Positions 36,866-60,237 of a DNA stretch of 64,000 nucleotides are shown here, in pieces; positions within the stretch are counted from its first letter, which is position 1; every line of letters begins with the position of its first letter. A program made the translations under genes and the position numbers. Origin of the DNA: Escherichia coli (lineage in GTDB: Bacteria; Pseudomonadota; Gammaproteobacteria; Enterobacterales; Enterobacteriaceae); the NCBI RefSeq assembly GCF_016903815.1, contig NZ_CP069973.1. One strand, 5' to 3'. The notes below the pieces were generated by a model that was not told the DNA's origin, searched no databases, and saw nothing but the letters and a program-made list of their open reading frames with translations.

Positions 36866-36952
36866 GCTGAAAAACATAACCCATAAAATGCTAGCTGTAC
36901 CAGGAACCACCTCCTTAGCCTGTGTAATCTCCCTTACACGGGCTTATTTTTT
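36866..36952 (+). ncRNA. cyaR: CyaR (RyeE) Hfq-dependent sRNA
   Basis: gctgaaaaacataacccataaaatgctagctgtaccaggaaccacctccttagcctgtgtaatctcccttacacgggcttatttttt matches the remembered CyaR sequence, including terminator hairpin and U-tract. Confidence 0.85.
36926..36952. other. P2 attachment core (27 nt), host/prophage junction overlapping the cyaR terminator
   Basis: aatctcccttacacgggcttatttttt is the reverse complement of the P2 att core AAAAAATAAGCCCGTGTAAGGGAGATT as recalled; ogr begins about 100 bp further on. Confidence 0.7.
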
Positions 36953-37053
36953 ACGCGTAACACAATGAAATAAAAGGATTTATTTCTGGTCACGTCCACA
37001 CATTGACCACATCGACAAAAAAGCCCCTCGACTGAGGGGCTTCCTGTTTGTAA

Positions 37054-37272
37054 TTACATCCACATAATTTGCTGCCCTGACGGCAACGGGTGCGGTCTTA
37101 CGGCGTGGACTTCTCCCGGCTTCACGATGTATCGCTGTACCGACTCATAAGTGATGAATGTGGCGCTGCAATTCACGTTCTGACACTGGTGATAACGCTC
37201 TTTTGTCGTGTCAGTGATATAGCGGCTTGTACGCGCATGTGCGGCATGCTGGCATAAAGGACAATGAAACAT
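37054..37272 (-). CDS. ogr: Late gene transcription activator Ogr (zinc finger)
   Basis: Internal start MFHCPLCQHAAHARTSRYITDTTKERYHQCQNVNCSATF gives 72 aa with a Cys4 motif. Confidence 0.9.
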   Translation of the reverse strand: MFHCPLCQHAAHARTSRYITDTTKERYHQCQNVNCSATFITYESVQRYIVKPGEVHAVRPHPLPSGQQIMWM

Positions 37273-37353
37273 CGCGAGCACCTCTTCCGGTTTTGTTGAT
37301 GGTGCCATTTTAGTTAATTTATCCTTATAAAACAAACAGATAAATAAATTACA

Positions 37354-38517
37354 TCACTCATCATCTTCTGTTTCGTACTCCACATCAGAAAGCCTGACCT
37401 CAAGCTCTAAGGACGTCGTGAAGCCGCTATTATTCAGAAAATGTGTCACCTTAGTGATTGTCCAGTCCTGCTCGTCTATGACGCGCTTAAAGCCTGATAC
37501 TTTAACCGGTGTTTCCGTGTAAATATCAGCACGACCGGTAGCCAGGCTGATGGAGAACTCCGCAACGCCCCGTTGCAGTTTATCCCACTTCGCCTGAGCG
37601 GCACGCATGGCCTGTGCTTTCGTGGCATATACCGTGGTCAGGGCAAAAACGTTGTCAGCCTCACCGGCCATGTATTCACCTTCGCGCGCTTCCGGTACTT
37701 TTGGCGCTTTCTTCTGCCTGACCGGTTTTGCTTTCGGGTGCTCCAGTGCGCGCAGGTGTTTTTCTTTCTTTTTGCGTTTCAGTTTTACCTTCTGCTTTTG
37801 CGGCTTCGGGTCTTTGGTGTGTAACCACTTTGCCGTTACGCCGGTATAGGCTCCACGGTCAGCAATCGCAAAATGATGGCGGTCGCCGTCGCTGCGGGTG
37901 ATGGTAATCTGCGGGATTTTTTTACCGCTGGCCGTCACCCCCTGCCCCGCTTTGAGAAACAGCAGTTTTCCCATTTTTACCGACACCTCACCGCCGTTGC
38001 GTTCTGCAAGACGGGTCAGGAATTTCGCATCAGACTCCTGCGACTGGTCGATGTGCGGGATTTTAATTCCGGCCAGTGACGGAGCGACACTGGCTTCCAG
38101 CCTGTTACGGGAGGCTATCGCCTCAACAATCGCACCGAGCGTGGTGTCATGCCAGGAGCCTTCCCGGCGGGAATTGAGCGTCCCGCGGAAATCTGCACTC
38201 CGGGCGCGGATGGTGACCACATCCGGCGCGCCCCGGTGTTCAACCTCATCAACGGTGAATTTCCCTTTGCATACCAGGGCAAAACCTTTCCAGCCGATAT
38301 ACACCGTCAGGACAGCGCCACGAACCGGCAGCCCGACCTGCCCGTCGGCATCGTTCAGTTCAATATCAAGCTGGTCAGCTTCAAAGCCCCGGTTATCCGT
38401 CAGAGTCATGCTCATCAGACGGTCGCTGATATTGCCGGTAATATCCCTGCTGTCGAGCATCAGCATGTAATCCGGCGTCAGCGTACTGCCTGCATCAAAT
38501 GTCAGCGCATCCAGCAT
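37354..38517 (-). CDS. D: Tail protein D
   Basis: 387 aa, same length and position as P2 gpD. Confidence 0.85.
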   Translation of the reverse strand: MLDALTFDAGSTLTPDYMLMLDSRDITGNISDRLMSMTLTDNRGFEADQLDIELNDADGQVGLPVRGAVLTVYIGWKGFALVCKGKFTVDEVEHRGAPDVVTIRARSADFRGTLNSRREGSWHDTTLGAIVEAIASRNRLEASVAPSLAGIKIPHIDQSQESDAKFLTRLAERNGGEVSVKMGKLLFLKAGQGVTASGKKIPQITITRSDGDRHHFAIADRGAYTGVTAKWLHTKDPKPQKQKVKLKRKKKEKHLRALEHPKAKPVRQKKAPKVPEAREGEYMAGEADNVFALTTVYATKAQAMRAAQAKWDKLQRGVAEFSISLATGRADIYTETPVKVSGFKRVIDEQDWTITKVTHFLNNSGFTTSLELEVRLSDVEYETEDDE

Positions 38518-38996
38518 TATCCCGCCCCCATCATACCTGTGAATCTGGTCGCCAGACTGCCGGCCTTACCGATGAGCGACTCCGCCTGTTTACCGATATC
38601 GCCATAAAGCGCGGCCAGTGATTCATCAACGCGGGTGAGCGACAGCGTAAAATCAATTTTCCGGGGTGTGCCGTCTGCAAAGAAAATACTCCCTGTTTCA
38701 CTCACCTTGCTGATGACATACATACCGTAAATCATGCCGGTGCCATCCAGCAACGGCCACGCCCGGCCTTCCTCTGCCATCAGTCTGAGCGTGGTCATCG
38801 TCAGCTTGCCGCCGGTCAGTTCGGGATAAAGCACACCGGCAAGCGTGATGTTTTCCTCGCCCACACCGAGAAACTGAAAGGCATCCCGTTTACCGATACG
38901 GGAATTTGACGGCCAGCGATAATCTGATTCACGCTGCATGGTCTGGTGTGGCAGCGTCTGGCGCATAAAAACAAACATACCTAACGCGAGCATCAT
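38517..38996 (-). CDS. U: Tail protein U
   Basis: 159 aa, same length and position as P2 gpU. Confidence 0.85.
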   Translation of the reverse strand: MMLALGMFVFMRQTLPHQTMQRESDYRWPSNSRIGKRDAFQFLGVGEENITLAGVLYPELTGGKLTMTTLRLMAEEGRAWPLLDGTGMIYGMYVISKVSETGSIFFADGTPRKIDFTLSLTRVDESLAALYGDIGKQAESLIGKAGSLATRFTGMMGAG

Positions 38997-39010
38997 TTTT
39001 CGTCACCTCC

Positions 39011-41458
39011 TTAACCGTCATGCATCATGCTGGCACGGGCGCGCGCACGTTTATCCCGCTCGTATTTTTCGAGCGCATCCTGTAACTGGCGGTCGAGCTG
39101 AGTCCCCGGCGCAGTACCGCCCGTCAGACTGATGTGATATTCGTTTTTACTCTGGTCCACATAAGAGCGGCCAGCCGGTGCCGTAACCGGCTGATAAGCC
39201 TGATAGCCTGCATAAGAGCTGGTCGCCGGAATATAACCACCGGTGCCATACGTGGCGGCATGAGTTCTGGCGGCGGTCTGGTCAAGCGTGCCTGACTCTT
39301 TGTTGATAACACCGAGTTTTTCCAGTACCCAGTCAATACCGCTGCGCAGTTTGTTGAACGCATTAAGCGGCAGCATCAACGCGTCAGCCAGTGCCTGCCC
39401 GAACATGACGCCCGTATCACGGCAACGGTTCAGGGTGTCCCGGGTGGCTTTGACCGGGGCAATCAGGTTTTTAAACCACTGCCACGCGGCCTGTAACTTT
39501 TCGCCCAGCCAGTCAAACACCGGCTTAAGTGGCGTGAACAGTTCCCCCACCGGCGCAAATGCCGCTTTCAGCCCTTCAACCACACCGCCAAAGAATGCGC
39601 TGACAGGCTCCCAGTATTTACGGATAAGTAACGCCCCGGCGACAATGGCGGCCACCACGGCCACAACCGGCCAGCTAATCGCCCCGATGGCCGTCATAAC
39701 AGCACTGCCAACCGTCGTGAAGATTGCTCCCATTGCGCCTGCTGCCGCGATGATGGCATTGATGCCGGTGATAACCGGCCAGGCTACGAGGCCAATGGCA
39801 CCGATGACACCAATCAGTGCCAGTGCACCACCGACAATGATGCCGATGGTTAACGCCAGTGATTTGTTTTTCTGTATCCAGCCGTCGAGTTTTAACACAT
39901 ACTTTGTGGCCGTCTGCGTGAGCTTACGCAGTGCGCCTTCCTGCTGGTCAAACAGGTCAGTCCCCACCGCCTCATAAGCGGACTGAAACTCCTTAAAGTC
40001 ACCGCCGAGGTTGTCCTGCATGATATTTACCAGCTCGGCGGTCTTCCCGTCTGAGGCTTTAAACGCAGCGGTCAGTTTGTCCAGCTTTCCAGTTGAGGCG
40101 GCAGTCATCAGCACGGCGGCGGCTGAGCTGGCCTCCTCCCCGAAAATAGTTTTCATGTATTCAGCCTGCTGGGCAGTACCGAGCCGGTTTTTCTCAAAAC
40201 TGGCCTGCATTTCTTTCAGAATGGTAAATACTGGTCGAGTATTCCCTTTACTGTCTGAGGTTTTCACGCCAAGCTCTTTCAGTGCATCCCATGCTTTTCC
40301 CGTCGGTGCCTGCAGGCGGCTTAACACGGCACGGCTTCCCGTCCCCGCCATTGAACCGGTAATTTTTGCATCATGCAGCGCCCCGACCATTGCGGCGGTT
40401 TCTTCAATGCTGACACCAGCATTTTTTGCCACAGGTGCGGCATAGGTCAGCGCATCGCTCATGCCATCAAAATCGGCGGCGGTTTTGTTCATCGTCATGG
40501 AGAGAACATCCCCGATATGAGCGACCTTATCGTTTGAAAGCTGAAAGGCGGATTTCATCCCCATCAGCAGGGCGGCGTTTTCTTCCATCGTGCGACGGTT
40601 CGCCAGCGCCATATTCAGCGTGACCGGCGTTGCCGCCTGAATGGCATCAACATCCCCACCGGCTTTCGCAATAATAATCTGCGCACCGGCTGCATCATCT
40701 GCCGAGGCTGCGGTATTGTTGCCGAGCTGGCGCGCCTGCTTGCGTAGTGCAGCCATTTCGGCGGAGTCTTTTGCCACACCGAGCACAGCCTGCAATTCTG
40801 AGTTTTTCTGCGCAAACTCATAACCGGGCATCAGCAACTTAACTCCGGCCATCGTTCCCGCAGCAGCAATCCCCACACCGGCAGCGCCCACCGAGGCCAT
40901 ATTTCCGGCCAGTTCCTTTCCGGCCTGATAACGCTGTTTTACTGCGTTAAGTTTTGCCTGTTGTGCACTGACACGCGCCAGCGCGTCACGCTGACGGTTA
41001 AGCTGTGCGGTGGTTTCACTGATACGGTTTTTCAGTCCCTGCTCATCATGTGCAAGATTGCGGGTATTAATTCCCACAGCGGCCAGTTCCCGCTGCTGGC
41101 GTTTAATGGAATCTGTCAGGCGGTTATATTTCGCCTGTAAGTCCTCCGCCGCACGCTTTGCGGATTCCAGCACTTTCGCCTGAGCACGGGTCGGACGTTC
41201 GGTATTTTTAAACTGTGTGGCAAGGGCTTCGGCCTCCTGCCGAGCCTTTTCAAGTGCATGACCAGTCACGGCGAGCTGTGCACTGGTCTTGCGGAATCCC
41301 TCAATACGGGATGCCTGACCGTTCAGCTCGCGCAGTGATTTTTGTGTTTCCCGGATATCCCCCGACAGCGATTTGCTCGCTGTGCGGATGGATTTAAACG
41401 GGCGGGATGCCTGGTCAACAGCCCTGAGCAATACCTGTAATTTTACATTGTTACTCAT
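39011..41458 (-). CDS. T: Tail tape measure protein T
   Basis: 815 aa, Ala/Gln-rich coiled-coil with Gly/Ala-rich TM-like segment; same length as P2 gpT. Confidence 0.9.
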   Translation of the reverse strand: MSNNVKLQVLLRAVDQASRPFKSIRTASKSLSGDIRETQKSLRELNGQASRIEGFRKTSAQLAVTGHALEKARQEAEALATQFKNTERPTRAQAKVLESAKRAAEDLQAKYNRLTDSIKRQQRELAAVGINTRNLAHDEQGLKNRISETTAQLNRQRDALARVSAQQAKLNAVKQRYQAGKELAGNMASVGAAGVGIAAAGTMAGVKLLMPGYEFAQKNSELQAVLGVAKDSAEMAALRKQARQLGNNTAASADDAAGAQIIIAKAGGDVDAIQAATPVTLNMALANRRTMEENAALLMGMKSAFQLSNDKVAHIGDVLSMTMNKTAADFDGMSDALTYAAPVAKNAGVSIEETAAMVGALHDAKITGSMAGTGSRAVLSRLQAPTGKAWDALKELGVKTSDSKGNTRPVFTILKEMQASFEKNRLGTAQQAEYMKTIFGEEASSAAAVLMTAASTGKLDKLTAAFKASDGKTAELVNIMQDNLGGDFKEFQSAYEAVGTDLFDQQEGALRKLTQTATKYVLKLDGWIQKNKSLALTIGIIVGGALALIGVIGAIGLVAWPVITGINAIIAAAGAMGAIFTTVGSAVMTAIGAISWPVVAVVAAIVAGALLIRKYWEPVSAFFGGVVEGLKAAFAPVGELFTPLKPVFDWLGEKLQAAWQWFKNLIAPVKATRDTLNRCRDTGVMFGQALADALMLPLNAFNKLRSGIDWVLEKLGVINKESGTLDQTAARTHAATYGTGGYIPATSSYAGYQAYQPVTAPAGRSYVDQSKNEYHISLTGGTAPGTQLDRQLQDALEKYERDKRARARASMMHDG

Positions 41459-41602
41459 TCGTGTTTCCGCTTCGCCGGAGCGCCTTTTCGCGCCATGTGA
41501 TGAGTTCGGTCAGGCTCATGGGATACAGTTCTGATGGCGGCCAGTGAAATATCACTGCCACATCCGCCATCAGGTCATCGACCGACAGATTTTTTGGAAA
41601 CG

Positions 41603-41878
41603 TCACTGCACCGAGTTCGGCGACAAAAAACCGACCACCTTACCGGCCAGCGCCACAAGGTCAGGCAGTTCCAGCGCGGCGACTTCCTGCTCGGTCAGCA
41701 TCGGTGCCGTCATGCGCGGCAGCACCTTAATCAGTGCATCGACTTCAGAGTTCGCGACCGCTGCCAGACTGACACCGCGCAGCGTCCCGGCATTGGGTTT
41801 CATCAGCGTGACCTGTTCGATAACCTGCTCACCACGCTTGACCGGATTGTCCAGGGTAATCACATTTTCTTTGTTCAT
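41603..41878 (-). CDS. E: Tail assembly chaperone E (E+E' made by -1 frameshift)
   Basis: 91 aa, same as P2 gpE; slippery TTTTTTG near the 3' end. Confidence 0.85.
   Translation of the reverse strand: MNKENVITLDNPVKRGEQVIEQVTLMKPNAGTLRGVSLAAVANSEVDALIKVLPRMTAPMLTEQEVAALELPDLVALAGKVVGFLSPNSVQ
41624..41630 (-). other. Programmed -1 ribosomal frameshift slippery heptamer (TTTTTTG) for E/E'
   Basis: caaaaaa on the plus strand is ttttttg on the coding strand near the end of E; the E' extension would run to about 41460. Confidence 0.65.
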
Positions 41879-41934
41879 GGTTTTCTCACTTCTGAATCGG
41901 GGTTAACCGGTCAGCCAGGCTGACCGGATGAAAA

Positions 41935-42453
41935 TCACAGGCCGATATTGCGGCGGTGTTGCTCCAGCCGGTCGACGCCGTTCACCTTCTCAATCATGTT
42001 GATGGTGTCGATTTCGACCAGCTCCTTACCGTCCATCGTCAGCCGGAAATAGGTGCAGACCACGGAGATTTTCGACTCGGTATCTTCTCCCTGTTTGCCC
42101 TCGCCGGTGTCGATTTCTTTCTGACGTCCACGCATGACCACCTCGACGGCCACCGTTTCGCCGGTATCGTCGCGCTGGTAAGAGCCTGCAAAACGAATCG
42201 GTACGGAATCCACACCGGTTGCGGCGTAAAGCTCCCAGATAACCGAATCCGGGAAGCCACCGAGCGACCACTCCATTGACAGCGCATCGTCATCAAGGCC
42301 GAGGTCTACCGGTGCGCTGCCGTTCATCCCCGCACCGCGATAGTTTTCGAGCTTACGGGTCAGTTTTGGTAGCGTGACGGACTTCGCGACGCCCTGATAG
42401 CTGTAGCCGTTCAGAAAGACGTTCATTAACTTGAGTTTGCGCGGCATTGCCAT
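41935..42453 (-). CDS. FII: Tail tube protein FII
   Basis: 172 aa, same length and position as P2 gpFII. Confidence 0.9.
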   Translation of the reverse strand: MAMPRKLKLMNVFLNGYSYQGVAKSVTLPKLTRKLENYRGAGMNGSAPVDLGLDDDALSMEWSLGGFPDSVIWELYAATGVDSVPIRFAGSYQRDDTGETVAVEVVMRGRQKEIDTGEGKQGEDTESKISVVCTYFRLTMDGKELVEIDTINMIEKVNGVDRLEQHRRNIGL

Positions 42454-42465
42454 CGGTCAGGCTCC

Positions 42466-43656
42466 TTAATTGCTGTTAACCGAGGTGACCAGATTTGCCA
42501 GGTATTTATCGGTAATACGCTGGCGCAGGGTCAGGTTTTCAAGAGGAGGCACCGGTGTATAGTCGTAGTCGATATACAGTTTTCCGGCCTTGAGGGTTTC
42601 CGCATCGTTGGATTCTTCGCTGAACCAGCAGGTCGCATCCACGATATAGCCGTTTGTTTTCAGCTCACGGAATTTGGCATTGATGCCGTCAACGATGTCG
42701 CGAATCAGCGTTGCGGTGATGGGCTTGTCCACCGCCCACATGTGCGCCTCAGCCATCGTGTCGGCCATCACCTGCGCGGTGCGGGTGTAGTTTTCAAAGA
42801 GGAACAGCGGGTCATCAGAGCAGGTACGGTTACCCCAGAATCGGAAACCGTCGCGGCGAATCAGCGTAGTGACGCCTGACTCGTTAAGCAGGTCAGCATC
42901 GGTGCCGGACTCCTGCAAATCCCAGAATACAGATGCGCTGATGCCGGTAACACCGTTTACCCCGACGTTGGACAGCGTTTTATGCCAGCCCTGCTCCTGG
43001 TCGATTTTAGCGCGCAGACCCAGCGCACGGGCGGTGGCATACGCGGTGGCGGTGGTACTGGTGACCGTATCCCATGCGAGGAAATCCGGCCAGATGACCA
43101 TCAGCTCACGCTGGCTGAAATTCTGGCGGTAGGCTTTCACCTCGGAAATGGTCTTACAGCTCCATGCGCTGATATATCCGAAAGCGCGCAGCTTCTGACA
43201 GACGGATGCCAGTGCAACTGCCACCTCTTTGGTATCCAGTCCCGGCACACCGAGAATACGCGGTTTAACACCGGTTACCGACTCCGCCGCCAGCAGGGCT
43301 TTTAGTCCGGTGTACTGACCGTTTTCGTCGGTGGTGCCGATGATATTGGAAACGGTCTGCGCGAGTTTCGTTTCCTCGTCGTCGCCGGTGCCGTCTTCCA
43401 CACGCACGACTACGGTGACCGGTTTTGACTGGTCAGCGATGGCCTGCAACGACGCCGCCAGCGTGCCTTTTTTACCGGCCTTTGCAATTGCGCTCTGCAC
43501 ATTGGTAATCAGCACCGGTTTATTGAGGGGGAAGATTTCCGCATCCGCATCGCTGGCCGTGCAGACCATGCCGACAATGGCGGTGGATACGGTGGAAATG
43601 ACGCGGGTGCCGTCGTTAATCTCCAGCACCTGCACGCCATGATGATAGTCGCTCAT
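42466..43656 (-). CDS. FI: Contractile tail sheath protein FI
   Basis: 396 aa, same length and position as P2 gpFI. Confidence 0.9.
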   Translation of the reverse strand: MSDYHHGVQVLEINDGTRVISTVSTAIVGMVCTASDADAEIFPLNKPVLITNVQSAIAKAGKKGTLAASLQAIADQSKPVTVVVRVEDGTGDDEETKLAQTVSNIIGTTDENGQYTGLKALLAAESVTGVKPRILGVPGLDTKEVAVALASVCQKLRAFGYISAWSCKTISEVKAYRQNFSQRELMVIWPDFLAWDTVTSTTATAYATARALGLRAKIDQEQGWHKTLSNVGVNGVTGISASVFWDLQESGTDADLLNESGVTTLIRRDGFRFWGNRTCSDDPLFLFENYTRTAQVMADTMAEAHMWAVDKPITATLIRDIVDGINAKFRELKTNGYIVDATCWFSEESNDAETLKAGKLYIDYDYTPVPPLENLTLRQRITDKYLANLVTSVNSN

Positions 43657-43749
43657 CCGTTTAACTCCGTGGTTAATGGGTGCAACTATTTTCTGTTGGG
43701 CAGTGCATGAGACGCCATTTGACCTGGCTGGTCAGTGGATGAAACAACA

Positions 43750-43778
43750 GATAAAGAAAATGCGGGCAATTCGCCCGC
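43750..43778 (-). terminator. Rho-independent terminator downstream of the 197-aa cargo gene
   Basis: Minus-strand hairpin gcgggcgaattgcccgc followed by ttttctttatc. Confidence 0.5.
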
Positions 43779-43985
43779 CTGTCCTGATTTGCACACACTC
43801 ATTTTCCGACTGACAGTTTACATAGCCCAAAAGTTATCAAATCTGACAGTCTGCTTTGAGCAAGAAGCGGACATTTGCCTGTCAGGGTATATGCCGCTCT
43901 GTGGTTATTATCCAGAATCAATAATTCATCTGAGTTGGATGACATATAAAACATAGTTACTCCATGAATAACCATTAGCAGATTA

Positions 43986-44579
43986 TCAATTATGTAAATC
44001 TTTTGTTTTATGTTCTTTAGCGTATTGTGACAACAAATGGCTATAGCGTTTAAGCAAAATATTAGAAAGATTAAGCTCATTCATGAAGTGTTCTTCTAAT
44101 AAGTAACCATCAATATCAACTTTAATATCATTACCACTTTTCATCTTCTGTAACGTAGATTTCACACGCTCCAGCAGGATGCTTTGCTCATGGTAATAGT
44201 CCATAAGAAGAGTAACATCCTCTTTATCAAGCTTACTTAATTCGCTGAAGTAGGATTTAAACACTTTATCAGTCTGGTTTAATGCAATCTGTAAGCGAGG
44301 CCCCCCTAATGATTTGACATTAATGGCAAAAGGCTCGCCAACAAAATGCTCCGAATTTTCGTCAAAGCCAATATATCTCGTTTTATCAAGAAAAGTGAGA
44401 GCGCGATGGTTATTAGCGATTTCATATGCAAACATTGTTCTGATACTGTCCCTCTCAGCCTCCATGCTTATATCATCACGGTGATTTGTATAAAATATAT
44501 TTCCAACAAAGAGAACCATAGCAAGAATCACTGAACTTGCCTCCCAGTTAATATTTTTAAATCGTCGCTTAGTAAACAT
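43986..44579 (-). CDS. Hypothetical membrane-anchored protein (cargo gene at the P2 Z/fun position)
   Basis: 197-aa ORF in an AT-rich block between G and FI; N-terminal basic stretch plus one TM helix (SSVILAMVLFVGNIFY); no recognised catalytic motif. Confidence 0.6.
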   Translation of the reverse strand: MFTKRRFKNINWEASSVILAMVLFVGNIFYTNHRDDISMEAERDSIRTMFAYEIANNHRALTFLDKTRYIGFDENSEHFVGEPFAINVKSLGGPRLQIALNQTDKVFKSYFSELSKLDKEDVTLLMDYYHEQSILLERVKSTLQKMKSGNDIKVDIDGYLLEEHFMNELNLSNILLKRYSHLLSQYAKEHKTKDLHN

Positions 44580-44800
44580 ACCGCACCTTAATTATCAAAA
44601 ATATTCCTTCAGTGTTATCTGGTTAGCCTAAACCAAGTCATTAAAGTCCGCAGGATATCATATACATAAAATGTATTGATTAGAATTTGCACTAATAAAA
44701 TAATGCTTTACTGAAATCTACTCCAGACATAGAGCGGCCTGTCAGATTAGGCTTTACTCTGTGCCATAGATATGTAATCTCACACCAGAGCTTATACAAC

Positions 44801-45328
44801 TTATTGCGGCATTTCCGGCCATTCAGGATTTACAGGATCCACACGGCTGACCAGAACGCTGTAGCGTTCCCATGACTCCAGTCGTGCACGTTCCTCATCC
44901 GTCGCCATATTCAGCCTGACAGCGCGTTCCAGTGGCTGAATAACGCTTTCCGCTTCGGAAAGTAATGCGGCCTTTTGTGATTCTGCCTGTTGTTGCTGTT
45001 CATCTGCCGTATAAATCCGTTTAACCACAGCACCATCCTTAAACATCCATTTACCTGAGTCGTCAGCACGTCGGTTGGAGGTAATATCAGGAACCTCAAC
45101 AACGCTAAAACCTTCAGGGTTAAGCGTTGAAGCATCTCTGGTGATAGCGACAATAATATTATTTTCATCGTAAACAATCTTTATTGTGTCTGGCTGAAAG
45201 TTCTTCACTTCCTCATACCAGTTTTTTCCATCCTCAGAGTAAAGCCAGATAACTCCGTGTTTCTTTGTTAACTCATACTGTTCCAGTGTTTTAGCGTTAC
45301 CCGCTTTTATGTTCTTTAAGTGCATCAT
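44801..45328 (-). CDS. G: Tail fiber assembly protein G
   Basis: 175 aa, same length and position as P2 gpG. Confidence 0.85.
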
Positions 45329-45329
45329 A

Positions 45330-47351
45330 TTAAACGCTCGCTACATTATACCAGGTGCCATTTATATACTTTTGAACGGGTCTGTAATAAACGCCCGCTA
45401 TATTATCGGCAGAGTTGGACCCTGTATCCTGAACATTAATACCAGACAATACATGACCTGACGGGCACTGGAAATTCCATGTTTGCCAGTTGTTCACTCC
45501 ATAATATTGCTGTGAACCAAGTCGAACATCTTTCACATATCTGGAATCAAAATTGCCATAGTTGCCAGGAATAACTTGCGAGCCACAAAGCCAGTTACCG
45601 TTATTATCCATGTACGCCTGACCATCGGTGCCATTGGCTGTCCTTGAGTTATTAATCATGTAGATGCCAAATTGCTTGTTCCCCAGTCCACCTATCATGA
45701 ACTTGCGGTCAGCGTGATTCTGGCGAAGCAACGCCTGAGCGCTATCAGTGTTAACTATATTTTTCCCAAAGATAGCGTTGTTATCGCGCATCTGAATCCA
45801 CATACCATTACTGCTGTTAATAGCAAAACGGTCTGAAAGCGTCTCCCCTGAAACATTAAGGCCACGCCCCATCGAAACAGCGCCAGTAGCGTTATTAATC
45901 CATAATGGCCTTAATCCGTTATAAGTCCCCATGTTGTCACCGGAGTTTGTCAACATGAAGTATGTATTTGAACCATCATTACGAATAAAGAATCCGTAAT
46001 TACCATAAGCAATACGTAGGCCGTTTGCTGATTTTGATATGACTTCGCCATTTACAATGGCATTGACAAGAACATACAAAGCATCCCATTTAAGATTCAT
46101 CAGGTCTTTTGTTGTAGTACTCTGGCGGCTTCTCCATTTGAAATATTCATTGCCGTTATCCCCCGTTTCAAACCACATGAATGAATCAGTGTCACCATCG
46201 GCATCATTTTTAAATCCAATCTTCGCCCAGTCAGTATTTCGAATCCAGGCAAGGATTGAGTCGTTTTCAAAAGTAAGTCCACCGGACAAGGTATCGCCAT
46301 TTTTTTGCACGGCGTTCCCGGCTCGGTTTACCGTTTCCTGTAAACCGAGATATTCGATAACGGCGGCAACGGTCGATTTAGCCAGAATATCCCGCCCGAC
46401 TTTTGTCAGGGTTGCCAGGCTGGCAACATCATTCCCCATAAAATACGGAAACCTGTCTGCCGCAGTAGCAAGCCCCGCCAGTGCCGTCAGGGTGGCATCT
46501 TTCGGTTGCTTCCCCGCAAGCGCATTAGTCATGGTGGTAGCAAAATTCGGGTCATTGCCCAGCGCCGCCGCCAGCTCGTTCAGCGTATTCAGTGCGTCAG
46601 GCGACGAGTCTACAAGGGCGGCAATCGCGGCCATAACGAAAGCCGTGTTTGCGATCTGAGTATTATTCGTTCCCTGTCGCGCAGTTGGCGTCGTTGGCGT
46701 TCCGGTCAGTGCAGGGCTGTTTAATGGCGCTTTCTTGTTCGTTTCATCCATTACCGTCTTAACGGCTTTCGGCGTTGCAGCCAGTGTTTCAGACGTGCTG
46801 TTGGTCGCACTGCTTAACTGAGTAAAACCTTTTGCGGTCAGCGAGGCGTCAGGGTGACGTCGTGACTGTTCATGTTCTGCAATTTTGTCATCAACGTAAT
46901 CCTGCGTCGCCATCACCGTTGTGGTGTCGATGGTCAGATCCACTGAGGCCACACTGCTGACGATAATGACCATGCGGCAGGTCTGCGAACGTCCTGAGCC
47001 TTCGGCAAGGGCTGGCTTATAACTTTCGGCCATGTTCGCCACGGCAATTAACGTTCCTGCATCATCGTACAGGCCAAGCTCACGCATCCAGAAACCGCCC
47101 ACCTCCGGCGGAATAACCAGCTCTGCGATAATATAATTACTGTTTCGTTTGTCCTGGCTGATTTTGTTCAGCGCATGTCGCCAGACTTCGTGGATAAGCC
47201 CGGTCTGTCCGGCATCCGGGACAGGCAATTTACCACCGCCATCCCCGACGGCCATCGTGGTAATGTTGACCTTCCGCCCTCCCGGCGCGGTTGCCGCTGC
47301 CAGCTTTGCTGCACCGGCAGTGGTGATAACGGTTTTGAATTTTGTGCTCAT
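45330..47351 (-). CDS. H: Tail fiber protein H
   Basis: 673 aa (P2 gpH about 669 aa); Thr/Ala/Gly-rich repeats in the fiber shaft. Confidence 0.9.
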
Positions 47352-47361
47352 TATTCCTCAC

Positions 47362-47892
47362 TTATCCGGGGTAAACCGTAATTACATCGCCGTCATAAGC
47401 CACACCACCGGCAAACAGGTAGCCGGGAATGTCCCGGGTAATGTTCAGACCAATAAGGTGGCGGCTTGCAGGTTTGGCATCAGCAATCAGCCGTTCCATT
47501 TCCTGATACATTGCCTCTGTGATGCCGCTTTCCAGTACACCAATATCAAGCCGGAAGGTGCCGGGCGGGTCACTGTTTTCCCACCACTCCGTCACGTTGA
47601 TGAGATAGCCGAGCGGCTCCACCACACGCCGGATTGCACCTATTGTGCCTTTATGACAGTGGATGAAATACGCATCGCGGATAACGGCGCGTTTTGTCGC
47701 TTCCGGCCACTTTTCATCCCACCTGTCGACCGAAAACGCCCACGCCAGCCACGGCAGCAGATTTGCCGGACAGGTGTCCGGGTTCCACAGCTCACGAATA
47801 CTGACCGGCGTTTTTTCAATTTCCGCACAGGCTTTTGCGGCGGCGACCTCAAGCGGTGATGAGCCGGTCGGCAGCAGTCGCGAATCACTCAT
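47362..47892 (-). CDS. I: Baseplate assembly protein I
   Basis: 176 aa, same as P2 gpI. Confidence 0.85.
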   Translation of the reverse strand: MSDSRLLPTGSSPLEVAAAKACAEIEKTPVSIRELWNPDTCPANLLPWLAWAFSVDRWDEKWPEATKRAVIRDAYFIHCHKGTIGAIRRVVEPLGYLINVTEWWENSDPPGTFRLDIGVLESGITEAMYQEMERLIADAKPASRHLIGLNITRDIPGYLFAGGVAYDGDVITVYPG

Positions 47893-48793
47893 CCGAGCCT
47901 CCGGTCACGACGCGGTATTCGGTACAGAAAGACGCCTGCGTACTGTTGAGCACGATGTCGGCCAGTGGTGCAGCCAGTTCGACACGCTGCACACCTTCCA
48001 CATGCAAAGCGGCATAAATGGCAGACAGACGGATGTCGCGCCCCAGCCGGTGCTGTGCCGTGATATACGCTTCCAGCTTTTTCACAGCGGCAGCGCGGAT
48101 GGGTTCGCTTTCGGGACCAGGGTAAAGGTAAAGCGTGGCGTTTATCTGGTATTCAACGATGGCGGCAGACTGCACGGTCACGCGGTCGGCCACCGGCCTG
48201 ACGTCCTCGCCATTAAGGGCGTTACGCACCACAGCCAGCAGGTCTTCGGATGCGACGCCGTTATTTTCACGTGACAGCACAGAGATGGTGACACAGGCAG
48301 GAGACGGACTGGTGACAGAAATATCCGCGACACGCCCGTCAGCACTGCGACCATGATACTGATAGGCTCCCACTGACCCGGCGACGCTTAAGCCCTCAAA
48401 AGCCTGCTGAATACGCAGACGATAATCGGTGTCAGATTCCATCACTGCCGGTGTCGGTGGAATGGTCGAATCATCTGCCGGGGTGATAGTCAGGCGCGTG
48501 GTGTTGTAATTGGCACCAATCACATCAAGGTCATTACCGGCGGCACAGGCCAGCATCACCGCCCGTGCGGCCTCATTCACACGCTGACGCCAGATAAGCT
48601 CACGATAAGCATTTTCTTCCAGCAGTTTGACGAGAGGCTCAGATTCCAGTGTCAGGGTACGGGCGACCGCCTCCTGCTGATCTTCCGGGTAAAGGGAAAT
48701 CAGTGTCGCCTTGCGTTCAGCGAGAATGCTTTCAAAGTCCAGCTCCTCGACCACATCTGGTGCGGGTAGCTGGTTCAGGTCGATAATCGGCAT
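47885..48793 (-). CDS. J: Baseplate assembly protein J
   Basis: 302 aa, same as P2 gpJ. Confidence 0.85.
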   Translation of the reverse strand: MPIIDLNQLPAPDVVEELDFESILAERKATLISLYPEDQQEAVARTLTLESEPLVKLLEENAYRELIWRQRVNEAARAVMLACAAGNDLDVIGANYNTTRLTITPADDSTIPPTPAVMESDTDYRLRIQQAFEGLSVAGSVGAYQYHGRSADGRVADISVTSPSPACVTISVLSRENNGVASEDLLAVVRNALNGEDVRPVADRVTVQSAAIVEYQINATLYLYPGPESEPIRAAAVKKLEAYITAQHRLGRDIRLSAIYAALHVEGVQRVELAAPLADIVLNSTQASFCTEYRVVTGGSDE

Positions 48794-48797
48794 GGTT

Positions 48798-49145
48798 TCA
48801 ACTCACAGGGATGGTTAATGAAAGTGGCTGGCCGGTGTCGTTGTGCTGGCCGGTTAACGTGACCGTCATTCGCCCGTCAAAACTGCGCTCAGTGGTGACG
48901 GATGACAGGGTGACGCGGGGTTCCCATTTCAGCACCGCCATGTAACAGGCGACCTTAATCTGCAACTCAAGCGCCGGGGTCTGCGGCTGGTCAATCATTG
49001 ATGCCAGCAACGAGCCGTAATCACGACGCATCACCCGTGAGCCGACCGGTGTGCGCAGGATATCGCCGATACTCTGGCTGATATGCTCAAGGTCAGTGAC
49101 AGTCAGGCCATCACTGCGATTCATTCCGAGATAACGCGCTGTCAT
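48798..49145 (-). CDS. W: Baseplate protein W (gp25-like)
   Basis: 115 aa, same as P2 gpW. Confidence 0.85.
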   Translation of the reverse strand: MTARYLGMNRSDGLTVTDLEHISQSIGDILRTPVGSRVMRRDYGSLLASMIDQPQTPALELQIKVACYMAVLKWEPRVTLSSVTTERSFDGRMTVTLTGQHNDTGQPLSLTIPVS

Positions 49146-49771
49146 AAAGGACTCCCGGTTGTGCCGCCGCTGTCGCCGGGGTGTTTGTGGGTATGCAGTA
49201 CCTTACCGTTTGATGAGAGTTCACCGCCGGTGTGTTCAATGTTGCCGCGCATCGTCCCGCCCTTCTGCACTTCCAGCGTGCCGGTAGTCAGTTTGTTAGT
49301 GCAGACCACTTCTGGTGTGTCCAGGGTGACGCGGGTTGATGCTTTCACCGTGACCACTGGTACCGTGGCAGTAACAGAATCAGAAGCCGTCACGCTGGCC
49401 GTTTTAATTCCGCTTACCGTGAGTGCACTGGTTTCAGGTTCATACTCAATCACCGCCCCGTCAGGGAAACGGATATGCAGGGCATCCGCCGACGCAGACG
49501 GCGCAGGGTTATCGCCGGAATAAATCCCCGGCAGAACGAACGCCGTGTCGAGTTCACCGCCCACGGCCAGAATCAGCACCTGTTCCCCCACGGAAGGTGC
49601 CCACCATGTGCGCGAACGCCCAGCGCGATGGGTCAGCCACTGAAGCCAGTCGGTGCACATGCCGCCAGTCTGCACACGGCAGCGACCGGCATTAAGGTCG
49701 GTTTCGACGATAATGCCAGTGCGAATCATATTGCGTATAAAGCGAAGAATTTCATTGTATTGTGCATTCAT
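49142..49771 (-). CDS. V: Baseplate spike protein V
   Basis: ORF track 235 aa; internal start MNAQYNEILRFIRNM gives about 209 aa (P2 gpV about 211 aa). Confidence 0.85.
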   Translation of the reverse strand: MNAQYNEILRFIRNMIRTGIIVETDLNAGRCRVQTGGMCTDWLQWLTHRAGRSRTWWAPSVGEQVLILAVGGELDTAFVLPGIYSGDNPAPSASADALHIRFPDGAVIEYEPETSALTVSGIKTASVTASDSVTATVPVVTVKASTRVTLDTPEVVCTNKLTTGTLEVQKGGTMRGNIEHTGGELSSNGKVLHTHKHPGDSGGTTGSPL

Positions 49772-49857
49772 TCGATAATAATGATTCTGTACAATCTCGA
49801 AGTAAATCACACCACGATTTCTGGTGCACAGAACAACAAGGGACAACAAAATCCATT

Positions 49858-50931
49858 ATGAGTACTTACTTTTTCTCGTCAGAAACAATGAAAGAATTGT
49901 TCAAAGATTATCTGGTCTTTTTGAACACGCTGACTCCCAGCACAAACTTTGAATCAAACAGAAACAAAATAATTGCTCAAGCAATAAACTTCATTTCCGA
50001 AAACCCTGAAGATTGGGACAAAAAATCCCAGTACAACATTGCTATGATTGGCGACACCTTTAAAAGTTTCTTAAGAGAAAAGGGGGAAGATAACAACAGC
50101 ATCAACCTTATATTCACTTGCTTTTTTAGATTTATCATTGAACCAAGCATTCTCTCTCCGGAAATAGAGTCTCACTTTTCACCACTAAGAACCATCAAGG
50201 ATTTTGCTCTGTATAACTATAATGAATTCGATGAGCGGAGCAGAGCACAGATAGACTTTTCTCTTAGAGAACTGCCATTAGCAATGGTTAAAGAAGTTTT
50301 AAGCTCCAGCAATGTTGACACATATAAAAAATACATTGATAGTTTAAACGAAGGGCGTCAATTTTTCGAAAAGTGCGACTCCTTCTTAAAGGAGCAACAT
50401 GCCAAAATAGAGTCAATTAAAGAGTCATTAAAAGGGTATGAGGTCGCATTTAATTTTGTTGGATTGTTTGATGGCTTTAATTCACTTGGCAAAAAGAAAG
50501 AAAGTGAAATCATGCTATCAAGAATAATTCTTATCATCTTGGCTATAATCATTCCCTCCCCGCTGATATACTATGGAATGCATAAATTACCAACTCTCGA
50601 AACGACAAATGCTGCCACATATTTTATGTCAGCACTACCTTTTGCATCAGTTACATTGATTTTCATGTATTACTTTAGAGTTGTACTGATAAATCATATA
50701 TCGTTACGAACTCAGATTATGCAAATAGAACTCAGAAAGAGCCTTTGTCAGTTCATTCAGAGTTATAGCGACTATTCCTCAGAGATAAGGAAAAACAATC
50801 CGGAAGCGCTTTCAAAATTCGAAGACGTAGTATTTTCAAACATCATGCTATCCGATGATAAGATACCATCTACATTTGATGGCATTGAGCAAATAGCATC
50901 GTTAATCAATTCATTAAAAAATGGAAAGTAA
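49858..50931 (+). CDS. Hypothetical two-TM membrane protein (cargo gene between V and S)
   Basis: ATG at 49858 (MSTYFFSSETMKELF) gives 357 aa; AT-rich; soluble N-terminal region, two hydrophobic helices (IILIILAIIIPSPLIYYG and ALPFASVTLIFMYYF), C-terminal tail; opposite strand to phage late genes. Confidence 0.65.
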   Translation: MSTYFFSSETMKELFKDYLVFLNTLTPSTNFESNRNKIIAQAINFISENPEDWDKKSQYNIAMIGDTFKSFLREKGEDNNSINLIFTCFFRFIIEPSILSPEIESHFSPLRTIKDFALYNYNEFDERSRAQIDFSLRELPLAMVKEVLSSSNVDTYKKYIDSLNEGRQFFEKCDSFLKEQHAKIESIKESLKGYEVAFNFVGLFDGFNSLGKKKESEIMLSRIILIILAIIIPSPLIYYGMHKLPTLETTNAATYFMSALPFASVTLIFMYYFRVVLINHISLRTQIMQIELRKSLCQFIQSYSDYSSEIRKNNPEALSKFEDVVFSNIMLSDDKIPSTFDGIEQIASLINSLKNGK

Positions 50932-50935
50932 TGAT

Positions 50936-50963
50936 AAAAGGCCAATAACTGGCCTTTTATTTA
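50936..50963 (+). terminator. Rho-independent (probably bidirectional) terminator
   Basis: aaaaggccaataactggcctttta: hairpin flanked by A-run and T-run, between the cargo gene (+) and S (-). Confidence 0.6.
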
Positions 50964-51033
50964 TTAACATGAAAATTCAAAATAAATTATGCTAATCAAT
51001 TGATTTCTATCTTATATTCTCAGATGATTAAAT

Positions 51034-51486
51034 CTAACGATTCAGGTGAGCCAGGATAATCTCTTCAATCATCTGCACATCCTCACCGGTAAAGCCAAGC
51101 AGAGGACGCGCCGGATAATCAATTTTCTTACCGTCTTTCCGGGTTTCTTCCGACAGACCGAACTGATGCACACTGGCGATTTTCGGTGACTTCCCGCCGT
51201 AAAACTCCATTGATGCCTGTTCAGGGCTGGCGCGGATATGCAAAAAACGACTGGTGATAAGTTTCGCAAACATTTTTCGCTTAACGCGACCGGTCTTTTT
51301 TCTGGCGCTCTGCTGCTGGCGTGGTGCGTAGGGTGTGCCGTCCGGGGCTTTCTGTGCCATCACCCGACGCTGCTGACTCTGCCGCAGACGTTTCGCCAGT
51401 TCTGCACTCAGTCGCCGACGCCCAGACGGTGACAGCGATTCAATCAGTCCGGTCAGCCGGTCTTCAAAACGCTTAAACTCATTCAT
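51034..51486 (-). CDS. S: Tail completion protein S
   Basis: 150 aa, same as P2 gpS. Confidence 0.85.
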   Translation of the reverse strand: MNEFKRFEDRLTGLIESLSPSGRRRLSAELAKRLRQSQQRRVMAQKAPDGTPYAPRQQQSARKKTGRVKRKMFAKLITSRFLHIRASPEQASMEFYGGKSPKIASVHQFGLSEETRKDGKKIDYPARPLLGFTGEDVQMIEEIILAHLNR

Positions 51487-51946
51487 CCCACTTGCTCACC
51501 AGTTCACCATTGATATAAAGCTCCATCGGGCGATTGACTGGCTCCGGCGGCGGAGGTTCCGGGATATTCTTCACATGCAGCGCACCGTCAACCTCACTGA
51601 CCAGCGTTCGCTCGGTCAGCATCAGGCTGATGCTGATATCAAAGCTGCTGTCATTGTTGATGTCTGCATAAAACGTGAAACCTTTTTTCTGACCTTCGTC
51701 GGTGGTCATGATGTCGGGCTGATTTTCCCGCAGCCACGCCAGCACCGGCACGATGAGCAGGTCAAAATCACCGGTAAAGTCGGTCACAATCACATTGAGC
51801 GTGTAACGCTTTTCGAACGACAGCGACGTCGCCAGCGTGGAGGCAATACTCCCGTTATCCACGAATATCCGCAGCATCTCTGGACTGGTTTTCAGCACCG
51901 TGACGGCATCAGTCAGCGCCCTGCGCAGGCTGTCGGGTTTGAGCAT
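51479..51946 (-). CDS. R: Tail completion protein R
   Basis: 155 aa, same as P2 gpR. Confidence 0.85.
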   Translation of the reverse strand: MLKPDSLRRALTDAVTVLKTSPEMLRIFVDNGSIASTLATSLSFEKRYTLNVIVTDFTGDFDLLIVPVLAWLRENQPDIMTTDEGQKKGFTFYADINNDSSFDISISLMLTERTLVSEVDGALHVKNIPEPPPPEPVNRPMELYINGELVSKWDE

Positions 51947-52199
51947 CGTTTTCGTCCTGACAGTGTTTAATCATTTTTACCTGGCTGGCACAACGTGCCA
52001 GCGCGTTCTCAAGCTGCCGGATATCGGCACTTAAATCGCCGTTCGTCTCCGGGTCACTGCCCGGCATCGGGCAAAGGCTCACTTTCGGGCAGGCGTTGGC
52101 GACAATCACTGGCGTCGGTGCAGGCGGGGCGCTGGTGCAACCGGCGCACAGCATCAGGCAGGTCAGCACCATACCAGCGGCGAAAATCTTCGTTTTCAT
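51909..52199 (-). CDS. lysC: LysC, Rz1-like outer-membrane lipoprotein spanin
   Basis: Internal start MKTKIFAAGMVLTCLMLCAGC gives a lipobox signal peptide and Pro-rich body; embedded in the 3' part of lysB in another frame. Confidence 0.7.
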   Translation of the reverse strand: MKTKIFAAGMVLTCLMLCAGCTSAPPAPTPVIVANACPKVSLCPMPGSDPETNGDLSADIRQLENALARCASQVKMIKHCQDENDAQTRQPAQGAD

Positions 52200-52479
52200 T
52201 AAGTAACCTCGTGATGGTTTTCTCGCGCTGTGCTTCACGCTTCGCGGCGTTCTCCAGTTCCTGACGCAGTGCCACCTGCGCCAGCTCGTTTTTGTCTGCC
52301 CTGGTGATGGCAACATGAAGCTGATTTTTCAGCATGGTGATGGTCGTCTGCTGTTCACTGGCGACGTTATTCGCCCTGTCCAGCGAGGCGCGCAGGCTGG
52401 CATTTTTGTGTTTCACCAGAAACAGACCGGTCACCGCCAGCGATAACAACACGACCAGCACAATCATCAGCTTTGACAT
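52054..52479 (-). CDS. lysB: LysB, Rz-like inner-membrane spanin
   Basis: 141 aa with N-terminal TM anchor and coiled-coil periplasmic region. Confidence 0.8.
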   Translation of the reverse strand: MSKLMIVLVVLLSLAVTGLFLVKHKNASLRASLDRANNVASEQQTTITMLKNQLHVAITRADKNELAQVALRQELENAAKREAQREKTITRLLNENEDFRRWYGADLPDAVRRLHQRPACTDASDCRQRLPESEPLPDAGQ

Positions 52480-52892
52480 AGTTCCCGCCCCTCAAAACGC
52501 TGACGGCAGGCCGTACGTATCAGCCGGAAGAACACCGATACCACGAGATAAATCAGCGCGGTAAAAATCCACCCGGCAGCGACCAGCGAGATAAACGTCG
52601 CCACCATCACCACCAGAGCCGCCGCCCGTCTGCGCCACGGCACCGGCTGCAAAAACAGCGACGTGACGATCTTCACGGCCAGCGATTCCGGCGGCAGCTC
52701 CCGCCCGTAGCGTTCCAGCACATACTCCGTGGCATACACGCCGACACCACCGGCAACCACACAGATAACCGTCGCCAGAATCGCCCATGCAGCGACAAAA
52801 CTGACGGCCACGCTCTGCGGGTAAATCAGGGACAGTGCCAGCATCAGCGCCAGCGACACGTTCAGCATCAGTGAAAGGGATAATTTCTTCAT
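52467..52892 (-). CDS. lysA: LysA, lysis-timing membrane protein
   Basis: 141 aa polytopic membrane protein, same size and position as P2 LysA. Confidence 0.8.
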   Translation of the reverse strand: MKKLSLSLMLNVSLALMLALSLIYPQSVAVSFVAAWAILATVICVVAGGVGVYATEYVLERYGRELPPESLAVKIVTSLFLQPVPWRRRAAALVVMVATFISLVAAGWIFTALIYLVVSVFFRLIRTACRQRFEGRELCQS

Positions 52893-52906
52893 GGTGTTTA
52901 CTCCGT

Positions 52907-53404
52907 TTAAGCCGGTACGCCGCCAGCGGTACGCCAGACGGTGACCAGTTTTTCCAGTGAATGCTCACGCTGACCGTAACCGGCACCCGGCAGGGACGCC
53001 CAGATATTGCGACAGCGTAAAATGGCGCGCTCAATGCGTCCCGCCCGGATGTCATCCAGTGCACCGCGTTCGCGGATCAACTGAATGGCGAGCCTGTCCT
53101 GTGACAACGGACTGAAATCCGGCAGGGCAAGCTGTTTGCGGTAGTGCGGCCAGAACAGGTAAAGCTGCTGATAGCGACCGGAGGCCGTGGATTTTTCACC
53201 GCGACGGTTAAACACCTTCGCCGGTCGGCCATGCGCGAACGGGTGGTCACTGTAGTCGGTGAAAATTTCCGGCTTCCCGTCCAGTCCGGTGACTATCACG
53301 TCATAGCCCCGGTTTTTCGTCAGCGGATGATTCGCCGTCCCTTCGGACACCGCCAGCATGTCGAGAAAGGCAGCGATATTCTGATGCGTGTTAATTACCG
53401 GCAT
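52907..53404 (-). CDS. K: Endolysin K (lysozyme-like)
   Basis: 165 aa, same as P2 gpK. Confidence 0.85.
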   Translation of the reverse strand: MPVINTHQNIAAFLDMLAVSEGTANHPLTKNRGYDVIVTGLDGKPEIFTDYSDHPFAHGRPAKVFNRRGEKSTASGRYQQLYLFWPHYRKQLALPDFSPLSQDRLAIQLIRERGALDDIRAGRIERAILRCRNIWASLPGAGYGQREHSLEKLVTVWRTAGGVPA

Positions 53405-53685
53405 TACGGTTTCCCCCTGCCCTTAAAGCGGCGCTGAATGGCAATCTCAATCACCTGATAACCGGCGATACCCAGCATGGAGCCGATGCCGCACACCGCA
53501 GGCAGTGACAGGTCAGGAAACTGCACCAGAACAACACCGGCAACCATCGAGACAAAACCACCGAGCAACATGCGCCCGATAAACAGACGCGGGGTGATGG
53601 GTTCACCACCGGCAAGCACCTTGCCGACAACAATCAGCACCCCAATCATGAAAAGCGACAGGACGCTTTTTTCTTCTGCTGTCAT
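53404..53685 (-). CDS. Y: Holin Y
   Basis: 93 aa with hydrophobic helices, same as P2 gpY. Confidence 0.85.
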   Translation of the reverse strand: MTAEEKSVLSLFMIGVLIVVGKVLAGGEPITPRLFIGRMLLGGFVSMVAGVVLVQFPDLSLPAVCGIGSMLGIAGYQVIEIAIQRRFKGRGKP

Positions 53686-53688
53686 GCG

Positions 53689-53892
53689 TTACTCCCACAG
53701 ATTGACAGTTTCAGCCACGGGCGCGGTCTGAACGTCGGGCAGTTCGACGGCGGTGCCGTGTGGCAGCACCGCACCCAGTTCAGCCAGTCCCGGATTTGCG
53801 GCGAGCACGGTCTCAACCACGCCCTCAGTGCGCCCGTAATACCGGACACAAATGGCGTCGAGCGTGTCGCCCTGTAGCGCAAAGGTCTTCAT
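53689..53892 (-). CDS. X: Tail protein X (LysM-like)
   Basis: Internal start MKTFALQGDTLDAICVRYYGR gives 67 aa, as P2 gpX. Confidence 0.8.
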   Translation of the reverse strand: MKTFALQGDTLDAICVRYYGRTEGVVETVLAANPGLAELGAVLPHGTAVELPDVQTAPVAETVNLWE

Positions 53893-54401
53893 CAGATTTG
53901 ACTCACGATGCAGCGCGGCTTGTCCTGGATGCGCGCCACTGCCCAGCGCATATCCCGCCACAGTTCATCAATGGTGCTGTCAATGCTGTCGGCCTTCTTG
54001 TCGCCTTTCGCACTGGCATCCACGCCGCGATAACGCTCATAAAGCGACGCGGTCGCCATCGCACACACGGCGCGCTCGTAGTAAAAAACTTTGATGCTTT
54101 CACCGTCGATGTCGTCCGCCGGGACGTCAGCCAGACGCGAAAAACCGGCAGCAATTTTCTGTTCGCGGTACTCGTACAGCTCCGCATTCGTCTCCGCCAT
54201 GCCTGACTTGACGGCCTCACGCAGACGGGCGGGGGCGACAGTCTGCTCAAGGCGCATACGTTCCCGGACGCGCTTCGGGTCGATATCGGGAAAAAAGAAC
54301 GTGTTTTTAATCACCGGCTCGTCGCCTGCCGGTTGCGGGATGACCACCGTACCCTCACCGGACACGGGAGCCTCCTTTCGCGGAATAATCAGCGTCATCA
54401 T
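53892..54401 (-). CDS. L: Head completion/stabilisation protein L
   Basis: Internal start MMTLIIPRKEAPVSGEG gives 169 aa, as P2 gpL. Confidence 0.85.
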   Translation of the reverse strand: MMTLIIPRKEAPVSGEGTVVIPQPAGDEPVIKNTFFFPDIDPKRVRERMRLEQTVAPARLREAVKSGMAETNAELYEYREQKIAAGFSRLADVPADDIDGESIKVFYYERAVCAMATASLYERYRGVDASAKGDKKADSIDSTIDELWRDMRWAVARIQDKPRCIVSQI

Positions 54402-54500
54402 GACTACCTCTGAAAAGTCGGGCGGTGGACGCCGGTGCAGTGTCAGGTGATTCACCCTCACTGACCGGCGTGCCGCCCTGGCGCGGGGCGCATTCGGTTG

Positions 54501-55244: not shown

Positions 55245-55247
55245 CGG

Positions 55248-56321: not shown

Positions 56322-56375
56322 AGTTATTCCTGAAATTAAGGGTTAATCGTGAAGGTTTTCCCGGACTGCCCCCGG

Positions 56376-60210: not shown

Positions 60211-60214
60211 ACAT

Positions 60215-60237
60215 CGCCGCCTGCGGGCGGCTTTTTT
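60215..60237 (+). terminator. Rho-independent terminator after Q
   Basis: cgccgcc tgcg ggcggc followed by tttttt. Confidence 0.7.

Follow-up and report, generated by a model that had tools for sequence, protein, structure and literature searches.

A heptamer, TTTTTTG, near the 3′ end of a tail gene in the window (the whole 64,000-nucleotide stretch of Escherichia coli DNA that was analysed) is almost certainly where ribosomes make a programmed −1 frameshift in gene E, the P2-type tail assembly chaperone gene, which is carried here by a P2-like prophage. Nothing in the sequence speaks against this reading, and it is comparative evidence that points to production of the 142-aa fusion protein, E+E′, in this prophage. 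The site is the E/E+E′ programmed frameshift of phage P2, already known since 2002, and is nothing new for biology; what this part of the window holds is a P2-type tail module that is intact and retains its recoding signal. The features on which the argument turns are as follows.

42466..43656, minus strand: FI, tail sheath (Pfam match)
41935..42453, minus strand: FII, tail tube, 172 aa, directly upstream of E (Pfam PF04985, 203 bits; 99.4% identity to P2 FII)
41603..41878, minus strand: gene E, zero-frame tail assembly chaperone, 91 aa plus stop (ORF list, translation)
41624..41630, minus strand: slippery heptamer T_TTT_TTG, with P-site codon UUU at 41629..41627 and A-site codon UUG at 41626..41624
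41603..41639, minus strand: dual-open stretch of 37 nt, shared by the open E and E′ frames and bounded by the −1-frame TAA at 41642..41640 and the zero-frame TGA at 41605..41603
41451..41624, minus strand: −1-frame E′ extension (translation)
41451..41878, minus strand: E+E′ fusion coding region, 142 aa, a join of 41878..41624 and 41624..41451
39011..41458, minus strand: T, tape measure, 815 aa (Pfam PF10145; 98% identity to P2 gpT)

The Slippery Heptamer and Its Reading Frames

An earlier note on this DNA had placed a TTTTTTG near the 3′ end of E, on the coding strand and within 41600-41640, and the window sequence bears this out: CAAAAAA on the plus strand at 41624..41630 reads on the minus strand as TTTTTTG at 41630..41624. 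The heptamer starts at offset 248 of the E ORF, where the zero-frame codons are GG-T TTT TTG, and it is in the X_XXY_YYZ register required for a tandem −1 slip. The E stop codon, the TGA at 41605..41603, comes six codons past the heptamer, and the −1 frame is free of stops for 57 codons after it, ending with the TAA at 41453..41451. The immediate −1-frame stop that the earlier note had named as fatal to its reading is thus absent, and its expectation of an E′ of about 50 codons reaching T fits the 51 codons that lie beyond the E stop, although counted from the shift the extension is 57 codons long and it overlaps T rather than merely reaching it. The overlap is 8 nt, ATGAGTAA, and takes in the T start codon, ATG at 41458..41456. 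Since both frames are open over those 37 nt only, the frame change must fall within 41639..41603, and the only in-register slippery heptamer in that stretch is TTTTTTG.

Taken by itself the heptamer is no more than would be expected by chance, there being 16 copies of TTTTTTG in the window against an expectation of 18.2 +/- 3.9, and its weight comes from its context. Long ORFs in the window contain ~0.003 in-register XXXYYYZ heptamers per codon, and 6 of the 75 are followed by at least 50 open −1 codons. The chance of finding an in-register slippery heptamer in the 37-nt dual-open stretch comes to P ~0.035.

The two parts of the fusion belong to separate protein families. The E part matches Pfam PF10109, Phage_TAC_7 (tail assembly chaperone E/41/14), over residues 7-85 with 47 bits against a cutoff of 25, and the −1-frame part matches PF06528, Phage_P2_GpE, over fusion residues 104-139 with 76.3 bits against a cutoff of 23; a search of NCBIfam with E and with E+E′ returned no match. 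The AlphaFold model of the fusion is confident (pLDDT 90, pTM 0.78), with a helix at residues 71-89 that spans the junction.

A Known Frameshift of Phage P2

The earlier note had also identified the site with the P2 E/E′ frameshift, an identification borne out by the 451 nt around E/E′, which are 99% identical to P2 (NC_001895), with no difference at all over the 60 nt leading up to the heptamer, the heptamer itself and the 28 nt that follow. In P2 the record has a joined E+E′ CDS, annotated [quoted passage not shown], and a feature, "site of -1 translational frameshift", at 19685 that matches the position of the window heptamer. The prophage has in common with P2 the heptamer, its register, the 91-aa and 142-aa products, the 8-nt overlap with T, and the flanking FII and T. 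It differs from P2 at 10 nt of the 451, two of them synonymous in the E′ frame, and the differences bring a single amino-acid change (Asn29 here, Ser in P2) that leaves gpE with 98.9% amino-acid identity to its P2 counterpart. The fusion protein is identical to the fusion constructed likewise from phage P2_2H1.

The arrangement also resembles that of lambda G/GT, as the earlier note had proposed, for the order FII (tube), E/E′, T (tape measure) is the G/GT arrangement: between the gene for the major tail or tube protein and that for the tape measure lie two ORFs that overlap, and a −1 shift late in the first of them joins the two, giving a minority fusion product whose N-terminus is common to the majority product. 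For the P2 E/E+E′ frameshift and the FETUD tail operon, PMC3091744 and PMC5009743 cite Christie et al. (2002, J Bacteriol 184:6522), and for the conserved tail-assembly-chaperone frameshift of long-tailed dsDNA phages they cite Xu, Hendrix and Duda (2004). In P2, a −1 shift at TTTTTTG gives a 91-aa E and a 142-aa E+E′ at a site without a downstream hairpin (PMC3091744), and both the literature and the P2 record hold that frameshifting takes place in P2 and that both E and E+E′ are needed (PMC3091744). The lambda counterparts of E and E+E′ are missing from mature virions (PMC5009743).

On this precedent, the majority of ribosomes translating the prophage gene would remain in the zero frame and terminate after 91 codons to give E, while a minority, with UUU in the P site and UUG in the A site of T_TTT_TTG, would slip back by one base. 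The P-site tRNA-Phe and the A-site tRNA-Leu would both re-pair one base back on UUU UUU, and decoding would go on in the −1 frame with GUC GCC GAA..., giving ...GFL-VAELG... and a 142-aa E+E′ that ends just inside T. Such a tandem two-tRNA slip would leave the junction peptide ...VVGFLVAELGAV..., with Leu at position 85. The two proteins would have the N-terminal chaperone part in common, and the conserved E′ domain would be found in the fusion only. By analogy with lambda G/GT (PMC5009743), the common N-terminal part would coat or bind the tape measure protein, and tube protein would be brought in by the E′ part, allowing the tail to polymerise to its correct length.

Conservation in Related Phages

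A tblastn search with the fusion found 418 phage records, nearly all of which were matched as two pieces, as a frame change between E and E′ predicts. For closer comparison, 17 lineages were assembled, comprising this locus and 16 more with identities from 77% down to ~35%: 186, Yersinia, Burkholderia, two from Klebsiella, Stenotrophomonas, Ralstonia, Pseudomonas, Halomonas, Arsenophonus, Aeromonas, P88, Vibrio, Acidovorax, Mannheimia and Salmonella SEN5. E′ was in the −1 frame relative to E in 17/17 lineages, and an in-register X_XXY_YYZ heptamer was present at the homologous G-F-L position in every one of them. TTTTTTG itself was found in 13, including those whose hosts have 63-67% GC and in which TTT and TTG are rare codons, and the heptamers of the others were TTTTTTT, TTTTTTC, AAATTTT (P88) or GGGAAAG (Mannheimia). 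The joint chance probability over the 17 lineages is ~1e-17 if they are taken as independent, a figure that is overstated since the lineages are related; on these comparisons the conclusion that the site is conserved is nevertheless safe.

Two scans of IMG/VR that were seeded with E′ peptides alone gave 160 loci, and a T6 heptamer was present in all 160, inspection of the seven loci missed by the automated site finder having turned up TTTTTTG in each. In the 80 closest loci the heptamer was TTTTTTG in 77 and TTTTTTC or TTTTTTA in the other three, and its six T's were invariant, whereas 29 of the 30 upstream third-codon positions varied. Downstream of the site, variation was seen at 45/57 of the −1-frame third positions, as against 24/57 and 10/57 for the other two frames, and its concentration at the −1-frame third positions points to purifying selection on E′ as a translated frame. 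One locus, L039 (IMGVR_UViG_2617270976_000011), stands apart in that the N-terminal half of E, at ~400-700, is replaced or disrupted by an E-frame stop with the heptamer and E′ intact; prophage decay or an artefact of assembly could account for this.

The Efficiency Gap and the Search for a Stimulator

In E. coli reporters, U_UUU_UUG is among the weakest of the U-rich heptamers: it shifts at 0.118% when unstimulated, at 0.247% when the IS911 stimulators are present and at 0.765% when combined with the IS3 pseudoknot (PMC4066793 Table S3). P2-type frameshifting, on the other hand, is given in a review as 2-3 times as efficient as the ~1 in 30 of lambda. The weakness of the heptamer in reporters set against the relatively efficient shift of P2 means that context must contribute, and this gap between the shiftiness of U_UUU_UUG and the efficiency in P2 is of modest practical value. 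The site resembles those of dnaX and the IS911/IS3 cassettes in having an X_XXY_YYZ heptamer suited to E. coli ribosomes and an upstream Shine-Dalgarno (SD)-like sequence, but differs from them in that there is no stable or conserved downstream hairpin or pseudoknot, and in that the heptamer is separated from the end of the SD-like element by 2-5 nt instead of 9-14 nt. Two local elements were considered.

41609..41622, minus strand: 5-bp hairpin CGCCG-AACU-CGGUG, 1 nt after the heptamer (RNA folds)
41633..41641, minus strand: SD-like AAGGUGGUC, with predicted pairing AGGUGGUC with the 16S 3′ end

Downstream, the 45 nt that follow the heptamer fold no better than shuffled sequences (z 0.69 for the window and 0.01 for P2), and no downstream structure common to the lineages was found. 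A 94-nt downstream fold did score z -2.28, but its stable element is ~50 nt from the heptamer, and it was set aside. The 5-bp hairpin is well kept in close relatives, where its core pairs are invariant and pairing holds in 92% of cells; as a stimulator it was rejected, being too close to the heptamer and showing no two-sided compensatory change. It is probably a by-product of the complementarity between the Ala GCC and Gly GGU (GCC/GGY) codons.

Upstream, the SD-like AAGGUGGUC forms a predicted duplex of -12.2 kcal/mol with the 16S 3′ end, the best value elsewhere in E being -7.6, and this pairing ends 3 nt before the P-site UUU, with the AGGUG core ending 5 nt before the heptamer. It is kept in 72 of 74 distinct close relatives, among which the variation at each of its two synonymous sites is 0.01, compared with a mean of 0.23 for third positions across the gene. 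The K-V-V/I-G amino acids or their codons could, however, explain that conservation, and although the element looked promising as a family-wide stimulator in the 17 lineages and in the close relatives, it failed in the wider sample, where the match was strong in only 16 of 30 TTTTTTG clusters, and it was weak or absent in about half of the diverged lineages. Its spacing is unusual as well, for SD sequences that stimulate −1 shifts lie 9-14 nt away, and the 3-nt spacing of the RF2 type has been described for +1 shifts (PMC5009743). The spacing of AAGGUGGUC falls short of the 9-14 nt range and barely reaches the shortest distance in the 6-17 nt interval of PMC4066793. We regard AAGGUGGUC as what appears to be a lineage-restricted feature with a putative stimulator role.

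The position of the element does leave room for a different kind of action. Lying 3 nt from the P-site UUU, AAGGUGGUC might serve as a close-range signal that lifts the weak U_UUU_UUG to the several-percent efficiency of P2, its pairing with 16S loosening the P-site tRNA-Phe while the A site waits on UUG, a suggestion that is speculative and probably wrong. Were it true, AAGGUGGUC would be a new 5′ stimulator geometry for −1 frameshifting, and the junction residue might be Phe, not Leu.

The same outcome at the junction would follow if, with or without help from the SD-like element, the P-site tRNA-Phe slipped back alone while the A site waited on a slow UUG, which would put Phe at position 85 and give the junction peptide ...VVGFFVAELGAV.... 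This single-tRNA slip seems unlikely. The close spacing that would suit it is, again, the one described for +1 and not for −1 shifts, the inconstancy of the SD-like element over the wider sample of TTTTTTG clusters offers it little, and the K-V-V/I-G codons could account for such conservation of the element as there is. Moreover, the published annotation has the shift after the terminal G and keeps the Leu (PMC3091744), as the tandem slip of both tRNAs would.

Other Routes to E′

The extension might instead be reached by slippage of the RNA polymerase, which would add one U on the T6 run so that ordinary translation of the resulting mRNAs gave E+E′. There is a homopolymer run at the site, of 6 T (7 in three lineages), and a terminator scan flagged a weak hairpin with a U-tract just upstream of it. 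Bacterial transcriptional slippage, however, has been described on runs of 9 A or T (PMC5009743), against which a run of six is short. In P88 (AAATTTT) and Mannheimia (GGGAAAG) a long run is missing altogether, and yet an X_XXY_YYZ heptamer is kept in the exact codon register; since register matters for the re-pairing of tRNAs and not for the slippage of a polymerase, its retention counts against a transcriptional origin of the shift. The upstream terminator-like hairpin, for its part, is of ordinary stability (z -0.71) and is unconserved, and the region has 10 terminator-like matches where chance alone would give 8.5. We consider slippage in transcription very unlikely.

It is scarcely credible that E′ is a separate small gene with a start of its own, such as the GTG at 41606, and that no recoding is involved, although this is how the region is commonly annotated: a 51-aa ORF at 41451..41606 appears in ORF-caller lists, and PGAP gives it the name 'GpE family phage tail protein' in some 1,500 genomes of E. 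coli, as do many phage records. No SD-like sequence precedes any of the candidate E′ starts in the window, and the conserved V/D-A-E-x-G residues lie upstream of the first possible start. Annotated E′ starts vary from record to record, and the first start available in the E′ frame is at E′ residue 41 in Arsenophonus, 27 in Vibrio MAR, 23 in Ralstonia and 21 in Mannheimia; these fall inside or after the conserved ADIAxxFHW core, so that in four lineages an independently initiated E′ product would lack the domain. A separate gene would also leave the nucleotide-level conservation of the heptamer unexplained.

Finally, there is next to no likelihood that TTTTTTG is a chance T-run in a decayed prophage whose site and tail module are non-functional, for although the 16 copies of TTTTTTG in the window are at chance level, the heptamer is invariant across relatives, the E/E′ differences from P2 are nearly all synonymous (1 amino-acid change for 10 nt changes), and the late genes are full length, as described below.

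The Tail Module

P2 coordinates 1..24382 are colinear with window 60398..36926, and the late genes from Q to ogr are all full length, with 93-100% identity to P2 except for the tail fibre gene H, at 67%. On the minus strand the genes around the frameshift site run in the order FI, FII, E/E′, T, U, D, ogr, all with the expected Pfam matches, and FI, FII, E, T, U, D and ogr are full length with 98-100% amino-acid identity to P2, which sustains the claim of the earlier note that the module is functional. With its late genes full length, the tail module does look functional, and judged by its genes the prophage can probably build tails.

Packing at the end of E′ is tight. Here, and in 13 of 17 related lineages, the stop codon of E′ overlaps or adjoins the first codon of the tape measure gene, and in the window it is frameshifted ribosomes alone that translate the 145 nt separating the E stop from the start of T. 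Translation of T could be partly coupled to the frameshift product, but tight packing is common in phage operons and the arrangement may mean nothing.

The Annotation Gap and the Rest of the Prophage

The locus is present in 1,582 of 5,426 complete E. coli genomes. RefSeq gives it as two genes, 'phage tail assembly protein' and 'GpE family phage tail protein', with no ribosomal-slippage fusion, and the separate entries for E and E′ in >1,500 E. coli RefSeq genomes amount to a systematic annotation gap, the noting of which is likewise of modest practical value.

The accessory cargo of the prophage is unlike that of P2, and the frameshift site is unaffected by it. Homology to P2 stops at 36926, in agreement with the attP core of P2 at 24356-24383, and two terminator-like hairpins lie in window 36917-37042, of which the one at 37021..37042 corresponds to the P2 ogr / F-operon terminator. 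By this match to attP, the region of 36926 is taken as the right attachment end of the prophage, and the integrase end lies beyond the window.

In P2, fun(Z) is a lysogenic-conversion gene that blocks T5. The fun(Z) slot between G and FI (window 43871-44728) holds a different, low-GC ORF of 197 aa at 43986..44579 on the minus strand, for which Pfam and PADLOC gave no match, and given what fun(Z) does in P2, the ORF in its slot could be anti-phage cargo. The P2 orf30 slot between S and V (window 49735-51029) contains an unrelated ORF of 389 aa at 49762..50931 on the plus strand, with hydrophobic stretches in its C-terminal half and likewise no match in Pfam or PADLOC.

To the right of cos, window 60398-64000, which is the P2 old/tin slot, has three different genes, encoding a 474-aa protein with a GHKL-type ATPase domain (PF13589, 34 bits), a 330-aa Methyltransf_35 protein (PF20553, 286 bits) and, on the opposite strand, a C5 DNA cytosine methylase (PF00145; PADLOC MTase_II, 273 bits). 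PADLOC had no match for the GHKL-type and Methyltransf_35 proteins, and the genes, which occupy a known accessory slot of P2, may form a defence or modification cassette that has yet to be catalogued. The tail fibre gene H (window 45330-47351, minus strand), with its 67% identity to P2 H between neighbours at 94-100%, shows a local divergence that fits an exchange of host-range modules.
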